Made by a program: the position numbers and the translations under genes. A DNA stretch of 64,000 bases from an uncultured Actinomyces sp. (GTDB taxonomy: Bacteria > Actinomycetota > Actinomycetes > Actinomycetales > Actinomycetaceae), in assembly GCF_900541895.1 (NCBI RefSeq), contig NZ_UWSI01000001.1; one strand, written 5' to 3'. Below the pieces are notes generated by a model. The model ran no database searches. It was not told where the DNA came from and was given only the letters and a program-made list of their open reading frames with translations. Each line of letters starts with the position of its first letter. The stretch's first letter is position 1. Of this stretch, positions 2,432 through 62,438 are shown piece by piece.

Positions 2432-5400
2432 TCAGATCGCATCGATGGTCGCCGCGGCGTTCGGACGCGCATCAAGAGTGATGCCCAGTTCCTCACGCGC
2501 ATTGAAGTCGTCATCTTCTTCACGCAGGTCAATCACGTTGCCGGCTGCGTCGAGAGCTTCGACGTTCAGGCACAGCGAACGCATTTCCTGGATCAGAACA
2601 CGGAAGGATTCGGGGATGCCAGGTTCGGGGATGTCCTCGCCCTTAACAATTGCCTCGTAAACCTTGACACGTCCGGTGGTGTCATCGGACTTGATGGTGA
2701 GCAGTTCCTGCAGTGCGTAGGCAGCGCCGTACGCCTCCAGGGCCCACACTTCCATTTCGCCGAAGCGCTGGCCACCGAATTGAGCCTTACCACCCAGGGG
2801 CTGCTGCGTAATCATCGAGTACGGACCGGTCGAGCGAGCGTGAATCTTGTCGTCAACCAGGTGGTGCAGCTTGAGCATGTAGGCGTAGCCCACTGCGATC
2901 GGGTACGGGAAGGGTTCGCCGGAACGACCGTCGAAGAGACGCGCCTTACCCTCGGCGTTGGTGAGGACGTCACCATCGCGGTTGGGGTTGACGTTGCGCA
3001 GCAGACCTGCGAGCTCTTCGGCCTCGAGGCCGTCGAAGACCGGGGTCGCAACGGGGGTCTCGGGGGCAACGGTAATGCCGTCCTTAGGCAGGTGCTTGGT
3101 CCACTCTTCGCCAGCCTTGACAGCTGCCGAGGCGTCCCAACCCTGGTGGGCAAGCCAGCCGAGGTGGAACTCAAGGACCTGACCGACGTTCATACGGCCG
3201 GGGACACCCAGCGGGTTGAGGATGATATCAACCGGGGTTCCGTCCTCGAGGAAGGGCATGTCTTCGACCGGGAGGATCTTGGAAACGACGCCCTTGTTAC
3301 CGTGACGGCCTGCCATCTTGTCACCAATGGTGATCTTGCGGCGCTGCGCAACGTAGACGCGAACGGTCTGACGAACGCCGGGGTTGAGATCATCTTCGTC
3401 GTCGTTGAATTCACGAACGCCAATAACGATGCCCTCTTCACCATGGGGAACACGCAGCGAAGTATCGCGAACCTCGCGGGCCTTCTCACCGAAGATTGCG
3501 CGCAGCAGGCGCTCTTCGGAGGTCAGCTCGGTTTCACCCTTCGGGGTGACCTTACCGACGAGGATGTCGCCAGCGGTGACCTCGGCGCCAATACGAATGA
3601 TGCCGCGCTCGTCAAGATCAGACAGCGACTCTTCCGAAACGTTAGGAATATCGCGGGTGATCTCTTCTTCACCGAGCTTGGTTTCGCGGGCGTCGACTTC
3701 ATATTCTTCGATGTGAATCGAGGTCAGAACATCGTCTTCGACAACGCGACGGCTCAGGATAACGGCGTCCTCGTAGTTGAGGCCTTCCCACGACATGTAA
3801 GCAACCAGCAGGTTCTTACCCAGTGCAACTTCACCGTTGTCGGTAGCGGGGCCGTCAGCGAGGACATCGCCGACCTCCACGCGCTGGCCTTCATCAACGA
3901 TGACGCGCTGGTTGGTGCAGTTGCCGGGGTTCGAGCGCTCGAACTTTTCGAGGCGGTAGGTGTCGCGTCCGCCTTCGTCCGTGGTCACGACGACCAGGTC
4001 GGCGGAAACTTCGGTGACAACACCGGAGTGCTGAGCGATGACCATTTCACCGGAGTCATGTGCGGCACGCTGTTCCATACCGGTACCCACCAGCGGTGCT
4101 TCCGTGGTGAGCAAGGGAACAGCCTGACGCTGCATGTTCGCACCCATGAGGGCTCGGTTTGCGTCGTCGTGCTCGAGGAAGGGAATGAACGCGGTTGCCA
4201 CAGACACCATCTGGCGTGCGGAAACGTCCATGTAATCCACGCGATCACGGGCGATCAGCGTCGGATCCTCACCTGCAACACGGCACAGAACCTGCTCATC
4301 GATGAAGTGTCCCTCGTCATCGACAGGCGAAGAAGCCTGAGCGATGAAGTGTCCCTTTTCATCGTCAGCGGTCAGGTACTTGACTTCGTCGGTCACCTGT
4401 CCGTTGCGAACGATGCGGTAGGGGGTCTCGATGAAACCGAAGGGGTTAATGCGGGCAAAGGTTGCCAGCGAACCGATCAGACCAATGTTCGGGCCTTCAG
4501 GGGTTTCAATCGGGCACATACGGCCGTAGTGCGAGGGGTGAACGTCACGAACCTCCATGGAGGCGCGATCACGAGACAGACCACCGGGACCCAGTGCCGA
4601 CAAACGGCGCTTGTGCGTCAGACCGGCCAGCGGGTTGTTCTGGTCCATGAACTGCGACAGCTGAGAGGTTCCGAAGAACTCCTTGATTGCCGCAACAACG
4701 GGACGAATGTTGATCAGGGATTGCGGAGTAATAGAGTCCGTTTCCTGAGTGGTCATACGTTCGCGGACGGTGCGCTCCATACGTGCAAGACCGGTGCGAA
4801 CCTGAGCCTGGATCAGCTCACCAACGGCGCGAATACGACGGTTACCAAAGTGGTCAATGTCGTCGGACTCAACGCGGACCTCGACGGGCTCGCCGTGGCG
4901 AACACCTGCGAAGGTCTTCTCACCCGCGTGCAGAGCAAGCAGGTACTTCACCGTTGCAACGATGTCGTTGATCGAGAGCACCAGTTCAGAGGTACCTTCG
5001 GGAGAATCAACACCAAGCTTCTTGTTGATCTTGTAGCGGCCAACCTTTGCCAGGTCGTAACGCTTGGGATCGAAGTAGAAGTTGTGCAGGAGCGCTTCAG
5101 CGGCCTCGACGTTTGCGGGCTCACCCGGGCGCAGCTTGCGGTAGATATCGGTCAGTGCCTCTTCGCGGGTACGCGCGGTGTCCTTCTCAAGAGTCTCAAG
5201 AAGAATCGGGTATGCGGCGAACTGCTCGCGAATCTCACCTTCCGTCAGGCCAATTGCCTTGAGGAAGTGGGTCACCGACTGCTTACGCTTACGGTCGATA
5301 CGCACGCCAACAGCGTCGCGCTTATCGATCTCAAACTCCAGCCATGCACCGCGGCTGGGGATGATCTTCGCGTTGAAGATTTCCTTGTCCGAACCACGAT

Positions 5401-11345: not shown

Positions 11346-11936
11346 TACCTCGCTATCCAATCGGTACACCAGTAGCGCCCTGCATAGTGTGTAACCGTGT
11401 GGCGGTCGGCTGTGATCACCTCGATCACGTCAGGGCAGGCGTCTTCACGGGAGCTGTCCTGGCCGAACAATACGATGACACCACTCCACAGGACTTAACC
11501 GCGCACGCGGATAGGCTATTCGAGCGGTAAATACTTCCGCATGCGGCACGCGTGGACGAGGGGGCCAACGCAGTGAGCAGCGAAACCGAGCAAGTCCACG
11601 ACCTCAAGGAGGTGACGATGCGGCGTATGTTTAGCGAGTACTTCATCTACATTGCTGTCCAGTCAATCCTGTTGATCTGTGGTGACACGGTGTACGTGCA
11701 CGCCTACTCTGAGATGCAGCACCTTTTGGTCGGTAGCACCAAGGAAGAACCATCCCAAAGAACGAAACCCTGGTGAGTACTCGATATCGAAAACCGTGAC
11801 CTAGTGGAGGAAGTCATTGCGATCAGCCTGCCACTGACGCCTGTGCGGGTGAAAGAGAATGCCAACGGACCAAAACAACCTACTGCTGGTAAAATCTTGG
11901 GATGAAAAATTGGATTGGCTAGGAAAGGAGGCAGAT

Positions 11937-12632
11937 ATGTCTTCATTGAATATCTATTGTGACGAAAGCACTCATCTGCCTAACGACCAGAAGCCTTTTA
12001 TGGTTTTAGGTGCGATTACCTGTCCAACTGAGCGTTCACGGGAAGTGGCAGTTCAACTTCGTAAGATAAGAGCCAAACACCACATTCCAAGTGAATTTGA
12101 GATCAAATGGACTAAAGTTTCTCCTGCGAAAGTAGATTTCTACCTAGATGTTATTGACTATTTTTTCGATGACGACGACCTCAATTTTAGGGCGGTAATT
12201 GCGTCAAAACAGAATCTTGATCATGGTCGTTTTAACCAGACTCATGATGACTGGTATTACAAGATGATGTTTTATCTTCTCCGCAACGTCCTTCCCCCAC
12301 AAGAACAGGCGTTCATATACCTAGACAAAAAGGATACGAACGGTAAGCAGAAGATTGACAAACTTCGAACCGTCATAGCGAACGCTGAGTATGACTTTGA
12401 TCGACGTAACATTCGACGCTTGCAGATCGTAGAGTCCCACCATGTCGGATTGCTTCAGCTGGCTGATCTGATCATTGGTGCAATTAACTATGCGAACCGT
12501 GGCGAGGTTGGAAACCCTGCAAAAATGAGGCTTATTGAAAGGATTCGGGAGCGTTCTGGTTTAAGCCTGACTTGCACGACCCTTCTTTCTGAAATGAAGA
12601 TGAACCTCTTTCACTGGAAGGCACAGGAATGA
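11937..12632 (+). CDS. DUF3800-like protein (island cargo gene 1)
   Basis: Strong GGAGG RBS 7 nt before ATG 11937. The protein MSSLNIYCDESTH...HVGLLQLADLIIGAINY has the DUF3800 signatures (N-terminal I-Y-x-DES and C-terminal QLADL). Codon usage and GC are clearly lower than the surrounding genes. Confidence 0.6.
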   Translation: MSSLNIYCDESTHLPNDQKPFMVLGAITCPTERSREVAVQLRKIRAKHHIPSEFEIKWTKVSPAKVDFYLDVIDYFFDDDDLNFRAVIASKQNLDHGRFNQTHDDWYYKMMFYLLRNVLPPQEQAFIYLDKKDTNGKQKIDKLRTVIANAEYDFDRRNIRRLQIVESHHVGLLQLADLIIGAINYANRGEVGNPAKMRLIERIRERSGLSLTCTTLLSEMKMNLFHWKAQE

Positions 12633-60994: not shown

Positions 60995-61183
60995 CGGGCA
61001 TGACAAAGGCGAGAGACCCGAGGCCTGCCCGAAAAAACGGTGGGCTGGCTGGCTTCCCTCGCCTTATGCAAATGTCGGGCCTTCAGCCCCCGCGTTGAAT
61101 CGTGCTGTTATTTCAAGCCTGGCGGAGGGTACCAACCCGACAGGTCGAGCTTAACAGGGATTTATCAGGAAAGCTAGACTTGG
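60995..61183. repeat. ~185-bp repeat element, copy 1 (island 2 boundary)
   Basis: CGGGCATGACAAAGGCGAGAGACCCGAGGCCTGCCCG…GGTGGGCTGGCTGGCTTCCCTCGCCTTATGCAAATGTCGGGCCTTCAGCC…GGTACCAACCCGACAGGTCGAGC…TTATCAGGAAAGCTAG. Copy 2 is 62083..62260 (about 88-90% identity). It contains several internally complementary segments. Confidence 0.75.
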
Positions 61184-61262
61184 CTTGCGCTGTACGCACT
61201 TCAAGAAACCGCGTGGAAATTGTTTGGGTAGCAAGCAGCAGTGAGGCAACATTGATTTGTAG

Positions 61263-61282
61263 CCCCGCGCGTGCGGGGAAAA
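61263..61282. repeat. solitary type I-E-like CRISPR repeat palindrome (copy a)
   Basis: CCCCGCGCGTGCGGGGAAAA has the same stem-loop geometry as I-E repeats (CCCCGC-N4-GCGGGG). A second copy, CCCCGTGCGTGCGGGGAAAA, is at 61935..61954. The 672-bp spacing means this is not an array. Confidence 0.4.
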
Positions 61283-61295
61283 TGAAGAGGGAGAA

Positions 61296-61577
61296 TTAGG
61301 CGTGCTGCCTGTCGTACAGGCAGTCCTCCCAGTACTCCCGGATCAATTCTTCGTTGTACCCCCTTACAAGGCCGTCGATTAGATTTTCCGGAATGTCTGC
61401 TCCGTAAATAGTGAGGTCTCCGATAATTTTCATCGTGAGCGATTCGTCCTCGGCTATTTCAAGAAGAAACTTACTCTCCTCATCTTCGAGAACGGGAATA
61501 GGAAGGATGCTGTCTGCATATTTGATAAGGTCTTCGACCGTATACATTGCTTCAGTCATGATCACTCCCTCACTCAA
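61296..61577 (-). CDS. hypothetical very acidic 93-aa protein (AT-rich gene)
   Basis: MSEGVIMTEAMYTVEDLIKYADSILPIPVLEDEESKFLLEIAEDESLTMKIIGDLTIYGADIPENLIDGLVRGYNEELIREYWEDCLYDRQHA has 23 D/E against about 6 K/R. GC is far below the genome average. It lies between the two I-E-like palindromes. Coding status is unproven. Confidence 0.4.
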   Translation of the reverse strand: MSEGVIMTEAMYTVEDLIKYADSILPIPVLEDEESKFLLEIAEDESLTMKIIGDLTIYGADIPENLIDGLVRGYNEELIREYWEDCLYDRQHA

Positions 61578-61934
61578 CTGGTGTCAATTTACCATTTGAT
61601 ACGCGAAGTGCGCCTACGCCTCCAACGGGATGTGTAGTGATTGTTGCGCCCTTTGTCGCGTGTTTACCTCTCACGCTTATTTGCCCGCTCCATTAACTGT
61701 GCTGTATGCGTAAATTCGGCACCCTTGTTGCGTAATCCTAAGAGACGTCGGATTGGTAATTGTTAGAAACGCGGCCCTGATAATGTCGGTGTTGCTCCAG
61801 GTTCTTGGGAAGGAGATTTGTCCTGGCCTCATTTCGCGTTCTGCTTGCCTGTATGAGTGTCCGCCCGTACACTTCCCGTTTGCTTTTGTTGTCGCGTATA
61901 GATTGTGGTCAATCACCGCCTGCGTTGGGCTCAT

Positions 61935-61954
61935 CCCCGTGCGTGCGGGGAAAA
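61935..61954. repeat. solitary type I-E-like CRISPR repeat palindrome (copy b)
   Basis: CCCCGTGCGTGCGGGGAAAA, an 18/20 match to the copy at 61263. Confidence 0.4.
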
Positions 61955-62082
61955 CAAGAATCGTCACAAGTGCCACGTGTGCTCAGAGAACTCACCCAAG
62001 ATAACACTGTAGCTAGTGCATTTCGCGCCATCGCAACCTCGCGCATTCGAAATACAGCCGATTCAGCGTCACTGCAATTCGC

Positions 62083-62260
62083 CGGGCATGACAAAGGCGA
62101 GAGACCCGAGGCCTGCCCGGGGTAAATGGTGGGCTGGCTGGCTTCCCTCGCCTTATGCAAATGTCGGGCCTTCAGCCTCCACTTTCTCTTGGCCATTTAT
62201 TTCAGGCTCGCGGGGGTACCAACCCGACAGGTCGAGCGTAACAGAGTTTTATCAGGAAAG
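62083..62260. repeat. ~185-bp repeat element, copy 2 (adjacent to the tRNA-Ser 3' flank)
   Basis: Same element as 60995..61183. It is followed by a terminator hairpin CTTGTGGCCCC-aacatcag-TTGGGGCCACAAG (62311..62343) and then tRNA-Ser. Confidence 0.75.
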
Positions 62261-62351
62261 CTAGGCTTTGCATGCACTCACAACACTGCGGACGTTCTGC
62301 CGAATAAAAAACTTGTGGCCCCAACATCAGTTGGGGCCACAAGCCTAAACG

Positions 62352-62438
62352 CGGTAGCGCAGGGATTTGAACCCTGGGTGGCTGTTACACCACACAGCAT
62401 TTCGAGTGCTGCACCTTCGGCCGCTCGGACACGCTACC
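62352..62438 (-). tRNA. tRNA-Ser (anticodon CGA), class II with long variable arm
   Basis: Minus-strand GGTAGCGTGTCCGAGCGGCCGAAGGTGCAGCACTCGAAATGCTGTGTGGTGTAACAGCCACCCAGGGTTCAAATCCCTGCGCTACCG: anticodon stem CAGCA/TGCTG, loop CTCGAAA, long variable stem-loop, T-arm CAGGG-TTCAAAT-CCCTG. A terminator hairpin follows downstream. Confidence 0.8.

Follow-up and report, generated by a model that had tools for sequence, protein, structure and literature searches.

A probable remnant of a type I-E CRISPR-Cas locus with a phage-derived toxin-immunity segment between two CRISPR repeats in an Actinomyces/Pauljensenia-like bacterium

Results

Two 198-bp repeats and an acidic ORF beside tRNA-Ser

In the 64-kb stretch of DNA analysed here (the window), a reading made from the sequence alone had described a minus-strand tRNA gene, its terminator, two direct repeats, palindromes and an acidic ORF as one arrangement. 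We found all of these elements in place. The features of the site, with the assignments developed below, are as follows.

60995-61192, no strand assigned: first copy (copy 1) of a non-coding element of 198 bp, at the trailer end of the putative former CRISPR-Cas locus; 86.8% identical to copy 2
61193-61254, minus strand: array trailer, 62 bp, kept beside the terminal repeat in relatives
61255-61283, minus strand: degenerate terminal CRISPR repeat, ATTTTCCCCGCACGCGCGGGGCTACAAAT in minus-strand reading, matching the array end of locus L012
61284-61926, minus strand: oversized "spacer" of phage origin, 643 bp, bounded exactly by CRISPR repeats
61296-61559, minus strand: acidic ORF of 87 aa (possibly 83 aa from a second Met, 61547), putative immunity protein of a phage EndoU toxin
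61677-61934, minus strand: putative EndoU toxin-domain remnant, 85 aa, in frame from the ATG of the repeat's ATGAGCCC
61927-61955, minus strand: canonical I-E CRISPR repeat GTTTTCCCCGCACGCACGGGGATGAGCCC, with 1 mismatch to the consensus of arrays of 13-181 repeats
61956-62081, minus strand: cas3-upstream stub, including the first 11 nt of cas3 (ATGGCGCGAAA, 62031 down to 62021)
62082-62279, no strand assigned: second copy (copy 2) of the 198-bp element, toward cas3 and the tRNA
62309-62346, minus strand: intrinsic terminator of tRNA-Ser, a 17-pair hairpin followed by a T run
62351-62438, minus strand: tRNA-Ser(CGA), on which ARAGORN and Rfam agree; the fixed flank of the variable site

The two direct repeats, first put at about 185 bp, are indeed present in two copies, and BLAST aligns them over a slightly longer unit of about 198 bp (60995-61192 against 62082-62279). 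This alignment contains gap-free blocks at 60995-61031 against 62083-62119 (100% identity), 61035-61118 against 62124-62207 (85%) and 61127-61191 against 62214-62278 (89%). The window holds just these two copies, and 100 shuffles gave none. We rejected a coding role for the element, since no reading frame is kept between the copies or with a phage homologue. A structured RNA was likewise rejected: the element has no Rfam match at the gathering threshold or up to E 10, and it folds no better than shuffled sequence (z-scores of -1.3 to +0.6 over both strands). No single pairing scheme is kept in its variable core. Parts of the element also occur in a phage intergenic region and are targeted by spacers. 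The interior is mildly low in GC, in partial agreement with the sequence-only reading (0.49 in the 643-bp core, with a lowest value of 0.43, against 0.56 for the window); the repeats themselves have a GC content of 0.58.

The remains of a type I-E array

The palindrome CCCCGYGCGTGCGGGGA is found in the window at 61263 and 61935 only, where 0.06 occurrences would be expected by chance. The palindromes had been called nested and I-E-like; they do belong to type I-E repeats, which form two separate sites 672 bp apart and are not nested. An alternative in which the palindromes encode the junction motif VFPARTGMSP of polymorphic toxins was dropped in view of the regular arrays and cas genes found at this site. 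The degenerate repeat also closes a regular array with a 61-bp period at the homologous site of L012, in which nothing but the last 24 bp of the trailer separates the DUF4921 stop codon from the terminal repeat. The canonical repeat occupies the position of the first repeat-like unit upstream of cas3 in cas+ strains; its last base, 61927, is protospacer-derived and is included in the phage match described below. The cas3-upstream stub is 89% identical to L112 61-191, just upstream of the repeat-like units that precede cas3, and it abuts the canonical repeat exactly where the first such unit sits in L112 and L124. The duplicated cas3 start was seen by comparing L130 and L124. These two repeats are the only ones in the window: there is no tandem array with a period of about 61 bp or with at least three repeats, and tblastn found no Cas homologues in the 64 kb. 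The window locus is thus an array remnant and not a working array.

Related strains carry a far larger locus at the same site. Read on the minus strand, the order is tRNA-Ser terminator, flank, cas3-upstream region, cas operon and an array of 29-nt repeats, followed by the degenerate terminal repeat, the trailer, the 198-bp element and the end of the DUF4921 gene. By Pfam, L112 has a complete I-E operon (cas3-cse1-cse2-cas7-cas5-cas6e-cas1-cas2) at the DUF4921/tRNA-Ser site, and L103 has ORFs of matching sizes and order. About 9.3-9.5 kb separate the cas3-upstream sequence from the array in L130 and L124, and L130 shows cas3 coding sequence at the start of this interval. Regular arrays of the same repeat with a 61-bp period occupy the site in L012, L020 and L095, and metagenome contigs have arrays of 18-181 repeats there. 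The real leader of cas+ relatives overlaps the 3' end of cas2. These relatives also possess a two-unit, repeat-like mini-array upstream of cas3 (L112 168-240); for the 21-nt pseudo-spacer upstream of cas3 in L112, no guide-target match with up to 3 mismatches to the first 14 nt was found elsewhere in L112 or in the window between 60801 and 62500. From the arrays we collected 675 distinct spacers, many of which match phage contigs. The protospacers of ordinary spacers were in most cases preceded by AA, as AAC in 33 of 72 cases, AAG in 15/72 and AAT in 5/72.

A phage segment in the position of a spacer

The DNA between the two window repeats is 643 bp long, or 651 bp in alleles without a 10-bp deletion, and its edges coincide exactly with CRISPR repeats in at least 12 loci. 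L095 is the only locus to show the long segment inside a regular array; its contig ends before any cas gene. The segment has a match in IMG/VR, where phage contig L148 4411-5062 corresponds to window 61927-61284 with 93% identity over 654 bp; INPHARED phage records gave no match to the 643-bp segment. The phage junction, gtgagAA/C AACGCAGG (the slash marks the edge), agrees with the AA+N PAM of ordinary spacers, and the AA-C motif is present at the junction in three phage contigs. Ordinary spacers of these arrays match the same phages. At the level of sequence, this correspondence shows the segment to be a piece of a temperate phage taken up in the array where a 33-nt spacer would normally stand. 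The chromosomal copies have residues in common that set all of them apart from the three phage copies, in keeping with a single uptake event. Since the trailer-side spacers beside the big spacer vary between lineages, a single uptake requires differential loss of spacers or exchange between strains.

The same variability of the trailer-side spacers, as if they had been added independently, could also be expected if there were two separate arrays and the long segment were the DNA between them (a trailer and the next leader) rather than a spacer. We consider the chance of this next to negligible. The phage identity runs from end to end, stops at the repeat boundaries and starts at the PAM; the segment is unlike the real leader with its overlap of the cas2 3' end; and the leader-side repeat is canonical and not a decayed terminal repeat.

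A second long spacer, of 614 bp, is present in L014, L108 and L009. It is viral, starts at AA-C, and has an 18-nt sequence repeated near both of its ends; its two ORFs have no match in Pfam or PHROGs. This spacer and another of 123 bp also persist in cas-less alleles.

The type I-E integrase measures about 33 bp. From the PAM and the intact flanking repeats, we nevertheless infer that the segment was integrated by Cas1-Cas2. Gene transfer by recombination of spacers with phage protospacers is well established, and the segment might have entered the array in this way without the CRISPR integrase: either a normal AA-C spacer underwent homologous recombination with the phage followed by an illegitimate crossover, or a double crossover involved two neighbouring spacers. 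A normal first spacer (33-nt CAACGCAGGCGGTGATTGA...) would account for the 5' PAM, and the 18-nt repeat near both ends of the 614-bp spacer is also in keeping with such an entry. We regard it as unlikely, however, because both flanking repeats are complete with no spacer remnant, because a crossover at the TTCCCC microhomology would truncate the repeat, which is not seen, and because two independent long spacers both begin at AA-C. There is no AA, hence no PAM, 33 nt before the 3' end of the segment, which makes a second parental spacer unlikely; this argues against recombination and is not proof of integration by Cas1-Cas2. Direct repeats of at least 7 bp, a sign of a single crossover, were not found at the two ends of the 643-bp segment.

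A decaying toxin domain and a conserved putative immunity ORF

The gene order of the source phage is terminase, portal, VG15-EndoU, an 87-aa gene, scaffold and capsid, and the protein encoded at L148 3588-4778 contains a VG15 domain (179 bits). In the window this N-terminal domain is missing and the segment begins where the toxin domain does; what the window has is part of a VG15-EndoU module, not a member gene. In phmmer searches, the toxin part matches the C-termini of phage VG15-EndoU proteins with E down to 6e-15. Against Pfam EndoU_bacteria, for which the gathering threshold is 25.3 bits, the truncated window copy scores 18.1 bits and intact alleles score 28.5 and 36.9; a PDB sequence search with the toxin returned nothing significant. 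The window remnant is shortened by the 10-bp deletion, at 61685/61686. Across alleles, the toxin half has a pN/pS of 0.47, contains frameshifts and stop codons, and shows at least 7 independent disruptions, from which we infer that it is a pseudogene.

The acidic ORF is of a different kind. The sequence-only reading took it as 61296-61577, 93 aa from a TTG, and as the one plausible gene of the interior. Its acidity is borne out (pI 4.05, with 22 D+E and 6 K+R) and it does stand as an ORF; gene callers favour the 87-aa form, as we do, and we take it to be, in all likelihood, the immunity gene of a phage toxin module lying in an oversized spacer. The ORF starts 13 nt past the toxin stop codon of intact alleles, with a GAGGGAG Shine-Dalgarno sequence upstream. 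Its product is 32% identical (E 4e-6) to that of an 85-aa gene located after a distant phage VG15-EndoU gene, and 86-aa ORFs follow the toxin gene in another VG15-EndoU relative. A word-based protein search yielded only homologues of at least 92% identity, and the AlphaFold model, with a mean pLDDT of 51, is uninformative. The ORF is intact in 30/30 loci with a pN/pS of 0.14-0.15, across about 9% synonymous divergence, and the deletions that remove the toxin in L003, L018, L110 and L136 all end before it. The pattern of conservation suggests that the 87-aa immunity gene is probably the only part working today.

These data bear on whether the segment has any function. It might be a neutral fossil, having outlived the ordinary spacers only because slippage between repeats becomes rarer when they lie 680 bp from each other instead of 61 bp. 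Decay of the toxin half is evident, and the 614-bp and 123-bp spacers persist in cas-less alleles too, as such an explanation would have it. The lower rate of recombination at 680 bp could indeed make the retention of the segment partly neutral. That nothing in the segment has a function is nonetheless quite unlikely, given a 30/30 intact ORF with a pN/pS of 0.14 next to a toxin with frameshifts, stops and a value of 0.47, and given that the four toxin deletions halt before the ORF.

The opposite proposal is that the toxin and immunity genes are, or were, an addiction module of the CRISPR locus comparable to CreTA. The pair would be cotranscribed with the pre-crRNA, cutting by Cas6e would free the AUG in the repeat's AUGAGCCC, from which the toxin, 124 aa when intact, could be translated without a leader, and loss of the segment would be lethal. 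It is true that the toxin domain is in frame with the repeat ATG in all alleles and has no room for a promoter of its own, that the Pfam domain begins at residue 6, that the immunity gene directly follows, and that the segment survives when the rest of the array is lost. Yet a randomly captured fragment would match the frame in one case out of three, the toxin shows relaxed constraint (pN/pS 0.47), and translation dependent on Cas6e is purely hypothetical. Moreover, the segment persists with the toxin broken in at least 7 independent ways, and so its persistence does not need the toxin. We judge an addiction module improbable.

Alleles of the tRNA-Ser site

The sequence-only reading had proposed that the site is a heavily eroded integrative element or a small cargo cassette at the tRNA-Ser flank. 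On such a view, the repeats of about 190 bp would be scars of attachment sites. Direct repeats around a segment of somewhat lower GC beside a tRNA are what such an element would leave. There are also "empty" alleles (L101, L102, L115, L126 and L141) in which DUF4921, one copy of the 198-bp element, the terminator and tRNA-Ser follow each other, so that presence and absence of the contents, as expected of a cargo cassette, is seen, and the cargo at the site differs between strains. However, as that reading itself had remarked, there is no integrase inside: no integrase or recombinase is found among the ORFs of 57-64 kb, where the neighbours have Pfam matches to DUF4921, SCP_3, DUF4235, ACT, aldo-keto reductase and TetR, or in the alleles that we examined. 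There is no overlap between the repeats and the tRNA: the repeats end 72 bp short of it, past its terminator, and have no sequence in common with it. Cas+ L112 and L130 carry unrelated sequence in place of copy 2, and the interior is fully explained by the cas3-upstream stub, the two CRISPR repeats and the phage-derived spacer. A single-copy empty site is equally expected from homologous recombination between the 198-bp copies. An eroded integrative element is therefore very improbable, and a generic cargo cassette does not describe what the site contains; we prefer a collapsed I-E CRISPR-Cas locus.

The comparison of this locus across strains, suggested at the outset as a check, revealed that the two repeat copies exchange sequence with each other: in other lineages, copies 1 and 2 have traded their variable cores. 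In the single-copy alleles, the left flank is that of copy 1 and the right flank that of copy 2. We propose that the 198-bp repeats are copies of a hairpin-rich non-coding element that bracket the locus, and that recombination between them may give rise to the single-copy alleles. The repeats bracket the whole locus in some alleles only: an unrelated sequence of about 270 bp replaces copy 2 in cas+ L112 and L130, and in L003 as well. The tRNA-Ser(CGA) gene is 100% conserved in nearly all loci that contain it. The idea that this tRNA flank is a recombination hot spot fits the observation that strains variously carry CRISPR-Cas, DNA-methylase/ATPase genes or an unrelated two-gene cassette. The element does not belong to a dispersed repeat family, the refutation envisaged at first: 35 of 44 metagenome matches show recognisable features of the locus. 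Among other matches, 3 correspond to spacers of the same array or to its contig ends (L106, L112, L129), 5 represent a partial, rearranged copy in a phage, and 2 look like chance. A reference-genome search with the 21-mer CTCGCCTTATGCAAATGTCGG gave 0 matches because other lineages read TTATACAAATG there, and it is uninformative on copy number.

Discussion

Taken together, the sequence comparisons indicate that window 60995-62350 is most probably a collapsed type I-E CRISPR-Cas locus of an Actinomyces/Pauljensenia-like host, with a phage toxin-immunity segment as an oversized spacer. We envisage the following history. An ancestral array acquired a 651-bp piece of phage DNA encoding the EndoU RNase C-terminal domain of a VG15-type head protein and the immunity gene; the Cas1-Cas2 integrase would have inserted a prespacer with an untrimmed PAM-distal end. 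A later deletion may have fused a repeat-like unit ahead of cas3 with the repeat that immediately precedes the big spacer; this same event would have taken out the cas operon and the leader together with every younger spacer. The ordinary spacers that remained would have been lost by recombination between repeats. The immunity gene may now be transcribed from the old cas3 promoter region, from a TTGACA-N18-GATCAT site in the toxin remnant, or from both, and the 87-aa protein would neutralise the EndoU toxin carried by such phages.

A more general proposal can be put forward as a possibility that we rate as doubtful: type I-E adaptation in this lineage may occasionally integrate PAM-anchored phage fragments of about 0.6 kb (651 and 614 bp; possibly also 123 bp), so that the array would serve as a site of gene capture as well, and a captured antidote gene, cotranscribed with the pre-crRNA, would have been kept by selection after cas loss. 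Under this proposal the antidote gene would provide the host with an anti-phage or anti-competitor function at the protein level, and in cas+ cells the captured ORF may in addition be translated without a leader from the AUG of the repeat, once Cas6e has cut there.

The locus resembles the E. coli paradigm of type I-E CRISPR in its 29-nt repeat with a CCCCGC...GCGGGG stem, in the 32/33-nt spacers and cas3-to-cas2 operon of its relatives, in its degenerate terminal repeat, and in having the PAM-derived base as the last base of the repeat with the PAM-proximal end toward the leader. It departs from the paradigm in that the kept spacer is 643-651 bp long, about 20x the ruler length, and protein-coding, in that the PAM is AA+N (mostly AAC) and not AAG, and in that the window allele has two repeats only and neither cas genes nor a leader. 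In MuF-type toxins of temperate phages, a head-morphogenesis protein encoded between the portal and scaffold genes ends in a toxin domain, for which EndoU_bacteria is one of the families named, and a small immunity ORF comes next (Jamet et al. 2017, PMC5576092). The gene layout of the source phage is exactly the same, except that its N-terminal domain is Pfam VG15 instead of MuF; the window retains just the toxin C-terminus with the immunity gene, cut off from the phage protein and enclosed by CRISPR repeats. Orphan toxin-CT/immunity modules and orphan immunity genes of CDI, Rhs and related loci also combine a C-terminal toxin lacking a delivery domain with its cognate immunity gene, and there too the toxin decays and the immunity gene is kept. 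Those orphans, however, follow a complete toxin gene and are generated when conserved junction motifs recombine, whereas the module described here lies in a CRISPR array and has a PAM as its 5' edge.

In CreTA, a spacer-sized pseudo-spacer directs Cascade to repress the promoter of a separate toxin (10.1101/2024.01.05.574328). As in CreTA/CrePA and the mini-arrays that regulate cas genes, a toxin is here physically tied to CRISPR repeats, and cas+ relatives have a mini-array upstream of cas3. In contrast to these systems, the protein toxin and protein antidote are themselves the "spacer", and the window repeats are 643 bp apart with no spacer-sized pseudo-spacer between them. Casposons and integron cassettes share with the segment the precise bounding of kilobase-scale DNA by duplicated or recombination sites and the capacity to bring useful genes. 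Here there is no casposase, no terminal inverted repeat and no attC; the duplicated site is the CRISPR repeat and the edge of the insert follows the CRISPR PAM. With tRNA-linked genomic islands the site has in common its variability beside a tRNA, its direct repeats and its presence/absence polymorphism, but not an integrase or repeats containing the tRNA 3' end, and its variation is accounted for by homologous recombination, both of the 198-bp copies with each other and among CRISPR repeats. We found no precedent for gene-sized spacers in the literature on CreTA/CrePA, MuF toxins and altered spacer length, of which our coverage is incomplete.

In the prevailing view, the Cas1-Cas2 ruler keeps spacers at about 30-40 nt, and arrays store guides only. 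The natural arrays described here hold inserts of 651 and 614 bp with intact repeats on both sides, each starting at the PAM of the system itself, and purifying selection has acted on the captured immunity gene across many lineages. If the insertion was the work of the integrase, the ruler can fail in vivo with heritable products, and arrays can domesticate phage genes, in this case an antidote to a phage-packaged toxin; such inserts would moreover outlive CRISPR-Cas and mark its former place. For the window, an "eroded island" would give way to a precise history of CRISPR-Cas loss. There are also consequences for annotation. Arrays of this kind will be missed or split by CRISPR finders that expect evenly spaced repeats, and gene callers extend ORFs across the repeats: the 138-aa "proteins" found in databases begin before the repeat and continue across it.

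The tRNA-Ser flank of the window is a decayed type I-E CRISPR-Cas site

The features between the DUF4921 gene and the tRNA-Ser gene of the window are as follows.

60995-61192: copy 1 of a 198-bp direct repeat, pairing with copy 2
61283-61255, minus strand: CRISPR repeat, a variant of GTTTTCCCCGCACGCACGGGGATGAGCCC with a decayed 3' part
ATG at 61559, minus strand: acidic ORF of 87 aa (93 aa if read from a TTG), pI 4.05
61955-61927, minus strand: CRISPR repeat GTTTTCCCCGCACGCACGGGGATGAGCCC, a typical I-E repeat
62082-62279: copy 2 of the direct repeat, pairing with copy 1
62346-62309, minus strand: tRNA-Ser terminator, a 17-pair hairpin
62351-62438, minus strand: tRNA-Ser(CGA)

The repeats, tRNA-Ser, palindromes and acidic ORF claimed by the sequence-only reading are all present in the window, where CCCCGYGCGTGCGGGGA occurs twice, at 61263 and 61935; these palindromes belong to the two CRISPR repeats listed above. 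The low GC content that it reported is a modest dip (0.49 over 61284-61926 versus 0.56 for the window). The same reading took the region for an eroded integrative element or a cargo cassette. It was right that this is a variable, recombining hot spot with flanking repeats; it is not, however, an integrative element. The neighbours are ordinary genes (DUF4921 upstream, SCP_3 and DUF4235 past the tRNA) and no integrase was found among them. Nor is the site obviously mirrored by the proposed "island 1" at 11800-14800, near tRNA-Thr (14781-14856). GC is low there (0.42-0.50), but the 198-bp element is missing, as is any direct repeat of at least 25 bp in 13100-15200. Elsewhere in the window, an msiK RNA motif (Rfam RF01747, 40.5 bits) at 18111-18168, upstream of a plus-strand ORF, fits an actinobacterial origin.

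The DUF4921 protein is closest to those of Actinomyces sp. ph3, A. marseillensis and Actinomyces sp. S6-Spd3 (94-98% identity), a comparison that places the window among Actinomyces/Pauljensenia/Schaalia-like genomes. Two homologous loci (L012 and L020) have regular arrays with 32-nt gaps at the same site, right after DUF4921, and a decayed repeat of the window type also terminates the L012 array. Metagenome contigs were retrieved with a 22-mer from the 198-bp element; their arrays at this site range from 18 to 181 repeats. In the locus L112, the eight genes before the array are, by Pfam, Cas3, Cse1, Cse2, Cas7 (CT1975), Cas5, Cas6e, Cas1 and Cas2, and the ORFs of L103 match this operon in size and order. 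In L130 and L124, about 9.3-9.5 kb separate the cas3-upstream sequence from the array, and in L130 this stretch starts with Cas3 coding sequence. The PAM was derived from a set of 675 distinct spacers: protospacers in phage contigs have AA in front of them (AAC in 33, AAG in 15 and AAT in 5 of 72), and the base following the AA becomes base 29 of the repeat in the array. Today the window locus lacks both array periodicity and cas genes, the two features of array membership. Judged by these direct sequence comparisons, the window holds the fossil of a CRISPR-Cas locus, and we consider the identity and history assigned to it very probable.

Several minor features of the intact loci were noted. 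In L112 (9660-9700) the array starts just 18 bp after the cas2 stop codon, so short a gap that the functional leader must extend into the 3' end of cas2. In L124 (184-600 and 10129-12109) the CRISPR-Cas cassette is inverted relative to DUF4921, with its cas3 side adjoining that gene and the inversion breakpoint inside the palindromic middle part of the 198-bp element. Strains with cas genes have a cre-like mini-array upstream of cas3, GTTTTCCCCACCAGGGGATGACCC - 21 nt - GTTTTCCCCGCGAAAGCGGGGTTTTT (L112, 168-240; L124, about 575-650), and no target was found for its 21-nt pseudo-spacer. The mini-array lies in a block of about 270 bp, missing in L130, with the 11-bp cas3 start (ATGGCGCGAAA) duplicated at its two ends. 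The protein entries P0007, P0008, P0010, P0013, P0021 and P0026 are ORF-caller artefacts that read through CRISPR repeats of this array; among them are 131-160-aa "EndoU" proteins starting upstream of the repeat and 329/349-aa products of translated repeats (LVFPARAGM...). Finally, the Actinomyces-type locus (70-98% protein identity) occurs in records titled Trueperella pyogenes, Xylanimonas cellulosilytica and Sanguibacter keddieii (L013, which is NZ_JVLH01000009.1, L030 and L039), names that are probably wrong.

The two CRISPR repeats enclose a gene-sized piece of phage DNA

Between the two CRISPR repeats lies a segment of 643 bp in the window and 651 bp in alleles without a 10-bp deletion, and in every locus carrying it the edges of the segment are exactly the edges of the repeats. 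The array around it in L095 is otherwise regular and has three 32-nt spacers towards the trailer and at least ten towards the leader. Since this giant spacer is found in isolate genomes (L013 and L021) as well as in metagenomes, it is not an assembly artefact. Exact-word scans found four IMG/VR viral contigs that hold the full segment with no CRISPR repeat. In one of them, L148, positions 4411-5062 are 93% identical to window 61927-61284 (BLAST); the match covers the complete inter-repeat segment plus the one base usually taken from the protospacer, and nothing beyond. There it consists of the 3' third of a gene for 396 aa (Pfam VG15 and EndoU_bacteria) plus the next, 87-aa gene, with the portal gene on one side and the scaffold/capsid genes on the other. 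Three phage contigs have ...gtgagAA|C, the most frequent PAM form, directly ahead of the segment, and phages holding the segment are also matched by ordinary spacers of these arrays. At toxin residue 13, where the three phage copies have Q, all chromosomal copies have Y (N in L121); at 31 they have A instead of V, and at 67 I or L instead of V. A single uptake event behind all chromosomal copies would fit these comparisons.

A second long spacer, of 614 bp, is present in L014 (7571-8184), L108 and L009 (2329-2922). It contains two sense-strand ORFs of 74 and 100 aa, neither with a Pfam or PHROG match. Eight IMG/VR contigs (L151-L158) match it at 84-90% identity and have ...gcggtttAA|C directly ahead of the matching stretch. 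Thus, both gene-sized inserts start at AA-C and have complete repeats on both sides. By a rough estimate (A about 0.2, C 0.3), AAC would occur at any one position with a probability of about 0.01; two independent inserts at AA-C with full repeats are therefore good, though indirect, evidence for uptake by the adaptation machinery. This machinery may have integrated fragments with a processed PAM end and an untrimmed far end, and on balance we think it likely that Cas1-Cas2 integrated the 0.65-kb fragment. Another "spacer", of 123/124 bp, lies between decayed repeats in L018 (7567-7689) and also in L011, L016, L019, L092/L094, L096, L107, L110 and L139. End to end it is 81% identical to phage sequence from L105 and L120, in the intergenic region that precedes the scaffold gene, and it may be a third oversized spacer, its junction being too diverged for PAM scoring.

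As gene-sized DNA between duplicated integrase sites, these inserts recall casposons and integron cassettes, except that a CRISPR repeat serves as the site and a PAM marks the edge. The full-text literature that we searched, with incomplete coverage, holds no report of gene-sized, PAM-anchored spacers. The fossil would point to a behaviour of CRISPR adaptation that is surprising to specialists and open to direct test.

The toxin half has decayed and the immunity gene has been kept

On the minus strand, the toxin ORF is in frame from an ATG within the repeat's ATGAGCCC. Intact alleles give a product of 124 aa (as in L017) or 117 aa, scoring 28.5 and 36.9 bits against Pfam EndoU_bacteria (threshold 25.3), a domain that begins at residue 6. 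Apart from near-identical copies, an exhaustive phmmer search returned the C-termini of phage proteins of 388-456 aa whose N-terminal domain is VG15; their genes sit between those for portal and scaffold, with an 85/86-aa gene next downstream. In cas+ cells, cleavage by Cas6e could yield a leaderless toxin message with the candidate 5'-OH end ...GGGG|AUGAGCCC; that the repeat's ATG is in frame, for which the prior is one in three for a captured fragment, suggests that a leaderless toxin could be made in this way.

In the window, a 10-bp deletion at 61685/61686 cuts the toxin ORF to 85 aa and leaves an EndoU_bacteria score of only 18 bits. The disruptions seen among the loci comprise this deletion, two different 2-bp deletions and stop codons in L098 and L135; in L121 the His at the GGH motif is replaced by Tyr. 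L003, L018/L110 and L136 have larger deletions, none of which reaches the small ORF. For the toxin, pN/pS is 0.47 in frame-intact chromosomal alleles versus 0.21 in the phage copies. None of the 30 loci with the 87-aa ORF has it disrupted, and its pN/pS is 0.14 (16 chromosomal alleles, about 9% synonymous divergence). Because this ORF is intact with a low pN/pS and the toxin has been broken in many ways, the immunity gene appears to be what selection has kept. As an orphan antidote, it would act against an EndoU toxin carried in the phage virion or made by lysogens, and we think it somewhat likelier than not that it has a present function.

The window ORF is 32% identical over 66 aa (E 4e-6) to its homologue, an 85-aa phage gene found after a VG15-EndoU gene, and this homologue starts at the position of the window ORF's second Met. 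The immunity ATG is preceded by a good Shine-Dalgarno sequence, GAGGGAG, and a putative promoter, TTGACA-N18-GATCAT, lies just upstream of the ORF. A message from this promoter could begin almost at the second Met, with hardly any leader; transcripts reading through from the former cas3 promoter region are another possible source of expression.

Phage-borne polymorphic toxins of the MuF protein type are accompanied by a downstream immunity gene, and EndoU is among their toxin domains (PMC5576092). The cargo of the window is likewise a toxin domain plus an immunity gene, but it has no delivery domain and is only a fragment of a phage head-protein toxin/immunity module. Orphan toxin-CT/immunity modules of CDI and Rhs systems are alike in that the toxin decays and the immunity persists, and differ in the route of acquisition. 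In CreTA, a spacer-sized pseudo-spacer guides Cascade to the toxin promoter (10.1101/2024.01.05.574328); with a guide of that size and target defining CreTA, we rejected this assignment for the window locus.

An old deletion probably removed the cas operon

The homologue of 61956-62081 in L112 and L124 lies upstream of cas3 and is followed by two decayed repeat-like units, the cas3 promoter and the start of cas3. In the window, this sequence abuts the canonical repeat at 61955-61927, where the first repeat-like unit would sit, and it keeps the first 11 nt of cas3 (62031 down to 62021) with a GGAGG motif in front. The simplest reading is a deletion between the first repeat-like unit and an array repeat, both of which contain GTTTTCCCC. 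Along with the cas operon and the leader, such a deletion would have eliminated every younger spacer; no Cas homologue was found in the 64-kb window. The same cas3-stub/repeat junction is present in L013, L014, L017, L019, L021, L096-L098, L108, L125 and L135, a distribution that suggests a single event long ago, followed by spread.

The flanking 198-bp repeats recombine with each other

Copies 1 and 2 are 86.8% identical over 197 bp (BLAST) and align as three gap-free blocks of 100%, 85% and 89% identity. Nothing else in the 64-kb window resembles them, and shuffled sequence likewise gave 0 matches. In alleles of the window type the copies bracket the whole former CRISPR-Cas locus. Five contigs show only DUF4921, one copy, the terminator and tRNA-Ser, the single copy having the left flank of copy 1 and the right flank of copy 2; four others have two copies 358 bp apart, with just trailer and cas3-upstream scraps between them. 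The single-copy, "empty" alleles can be explained by deletion between copies. The element's variable core comes in several versions, and a version carried by copy 1 in one lineage can be carried by copy 2 in another. From these arrangements, the two copies clearly recombine with each other. An unrelated sequence of about 270 bp replaces copy 2 in L112 and L130, both cas+, and in L003.

The element is not coding, and a known RNA was rejected as well, as it matches no Rfam family; it folds no better than shuffled sequence. Parts 11-75 and 76-148, which are hairpin-rich, recur in opposite relative orientation in another phage group, in an intergenic region directly after a Phage_min_cap2-CdiA_C toxin gene. 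In the phages L105, L113, L120 (3411-3654), L132 and L142, the CdiA_C toxin gene is followed by about 240 nt of intergenic sequence with these rearranged parts, and no obvious immunity ORF follows the Phage_min_cap2 and CdiA_C gene. Several array spacers match this phage intergenic sequence or the hairpin part of the element, with an AA PAM; such spacers are in L095 (4867-4898, reverse complement), L100, L106, L110 and L112. They would be self-targeting in strains with the element beside the array; alleles of the L095/L100 type lack exactly that hairpin part in copy 1.

Other cargo was also seen at the tRNA-Ser flank, in L015 (7503-9123), L013 (8792-13287), L019, L096, L098 and L135. Several giant-spacer alleles have a DNA methylase and a HATPase_c_3 protein between the cas3 stub and the tRNA, and in Actinomyces sp. 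ph3 genes of 391 and 150 aa, with no Pfam family, stand in place of the CRISPR.
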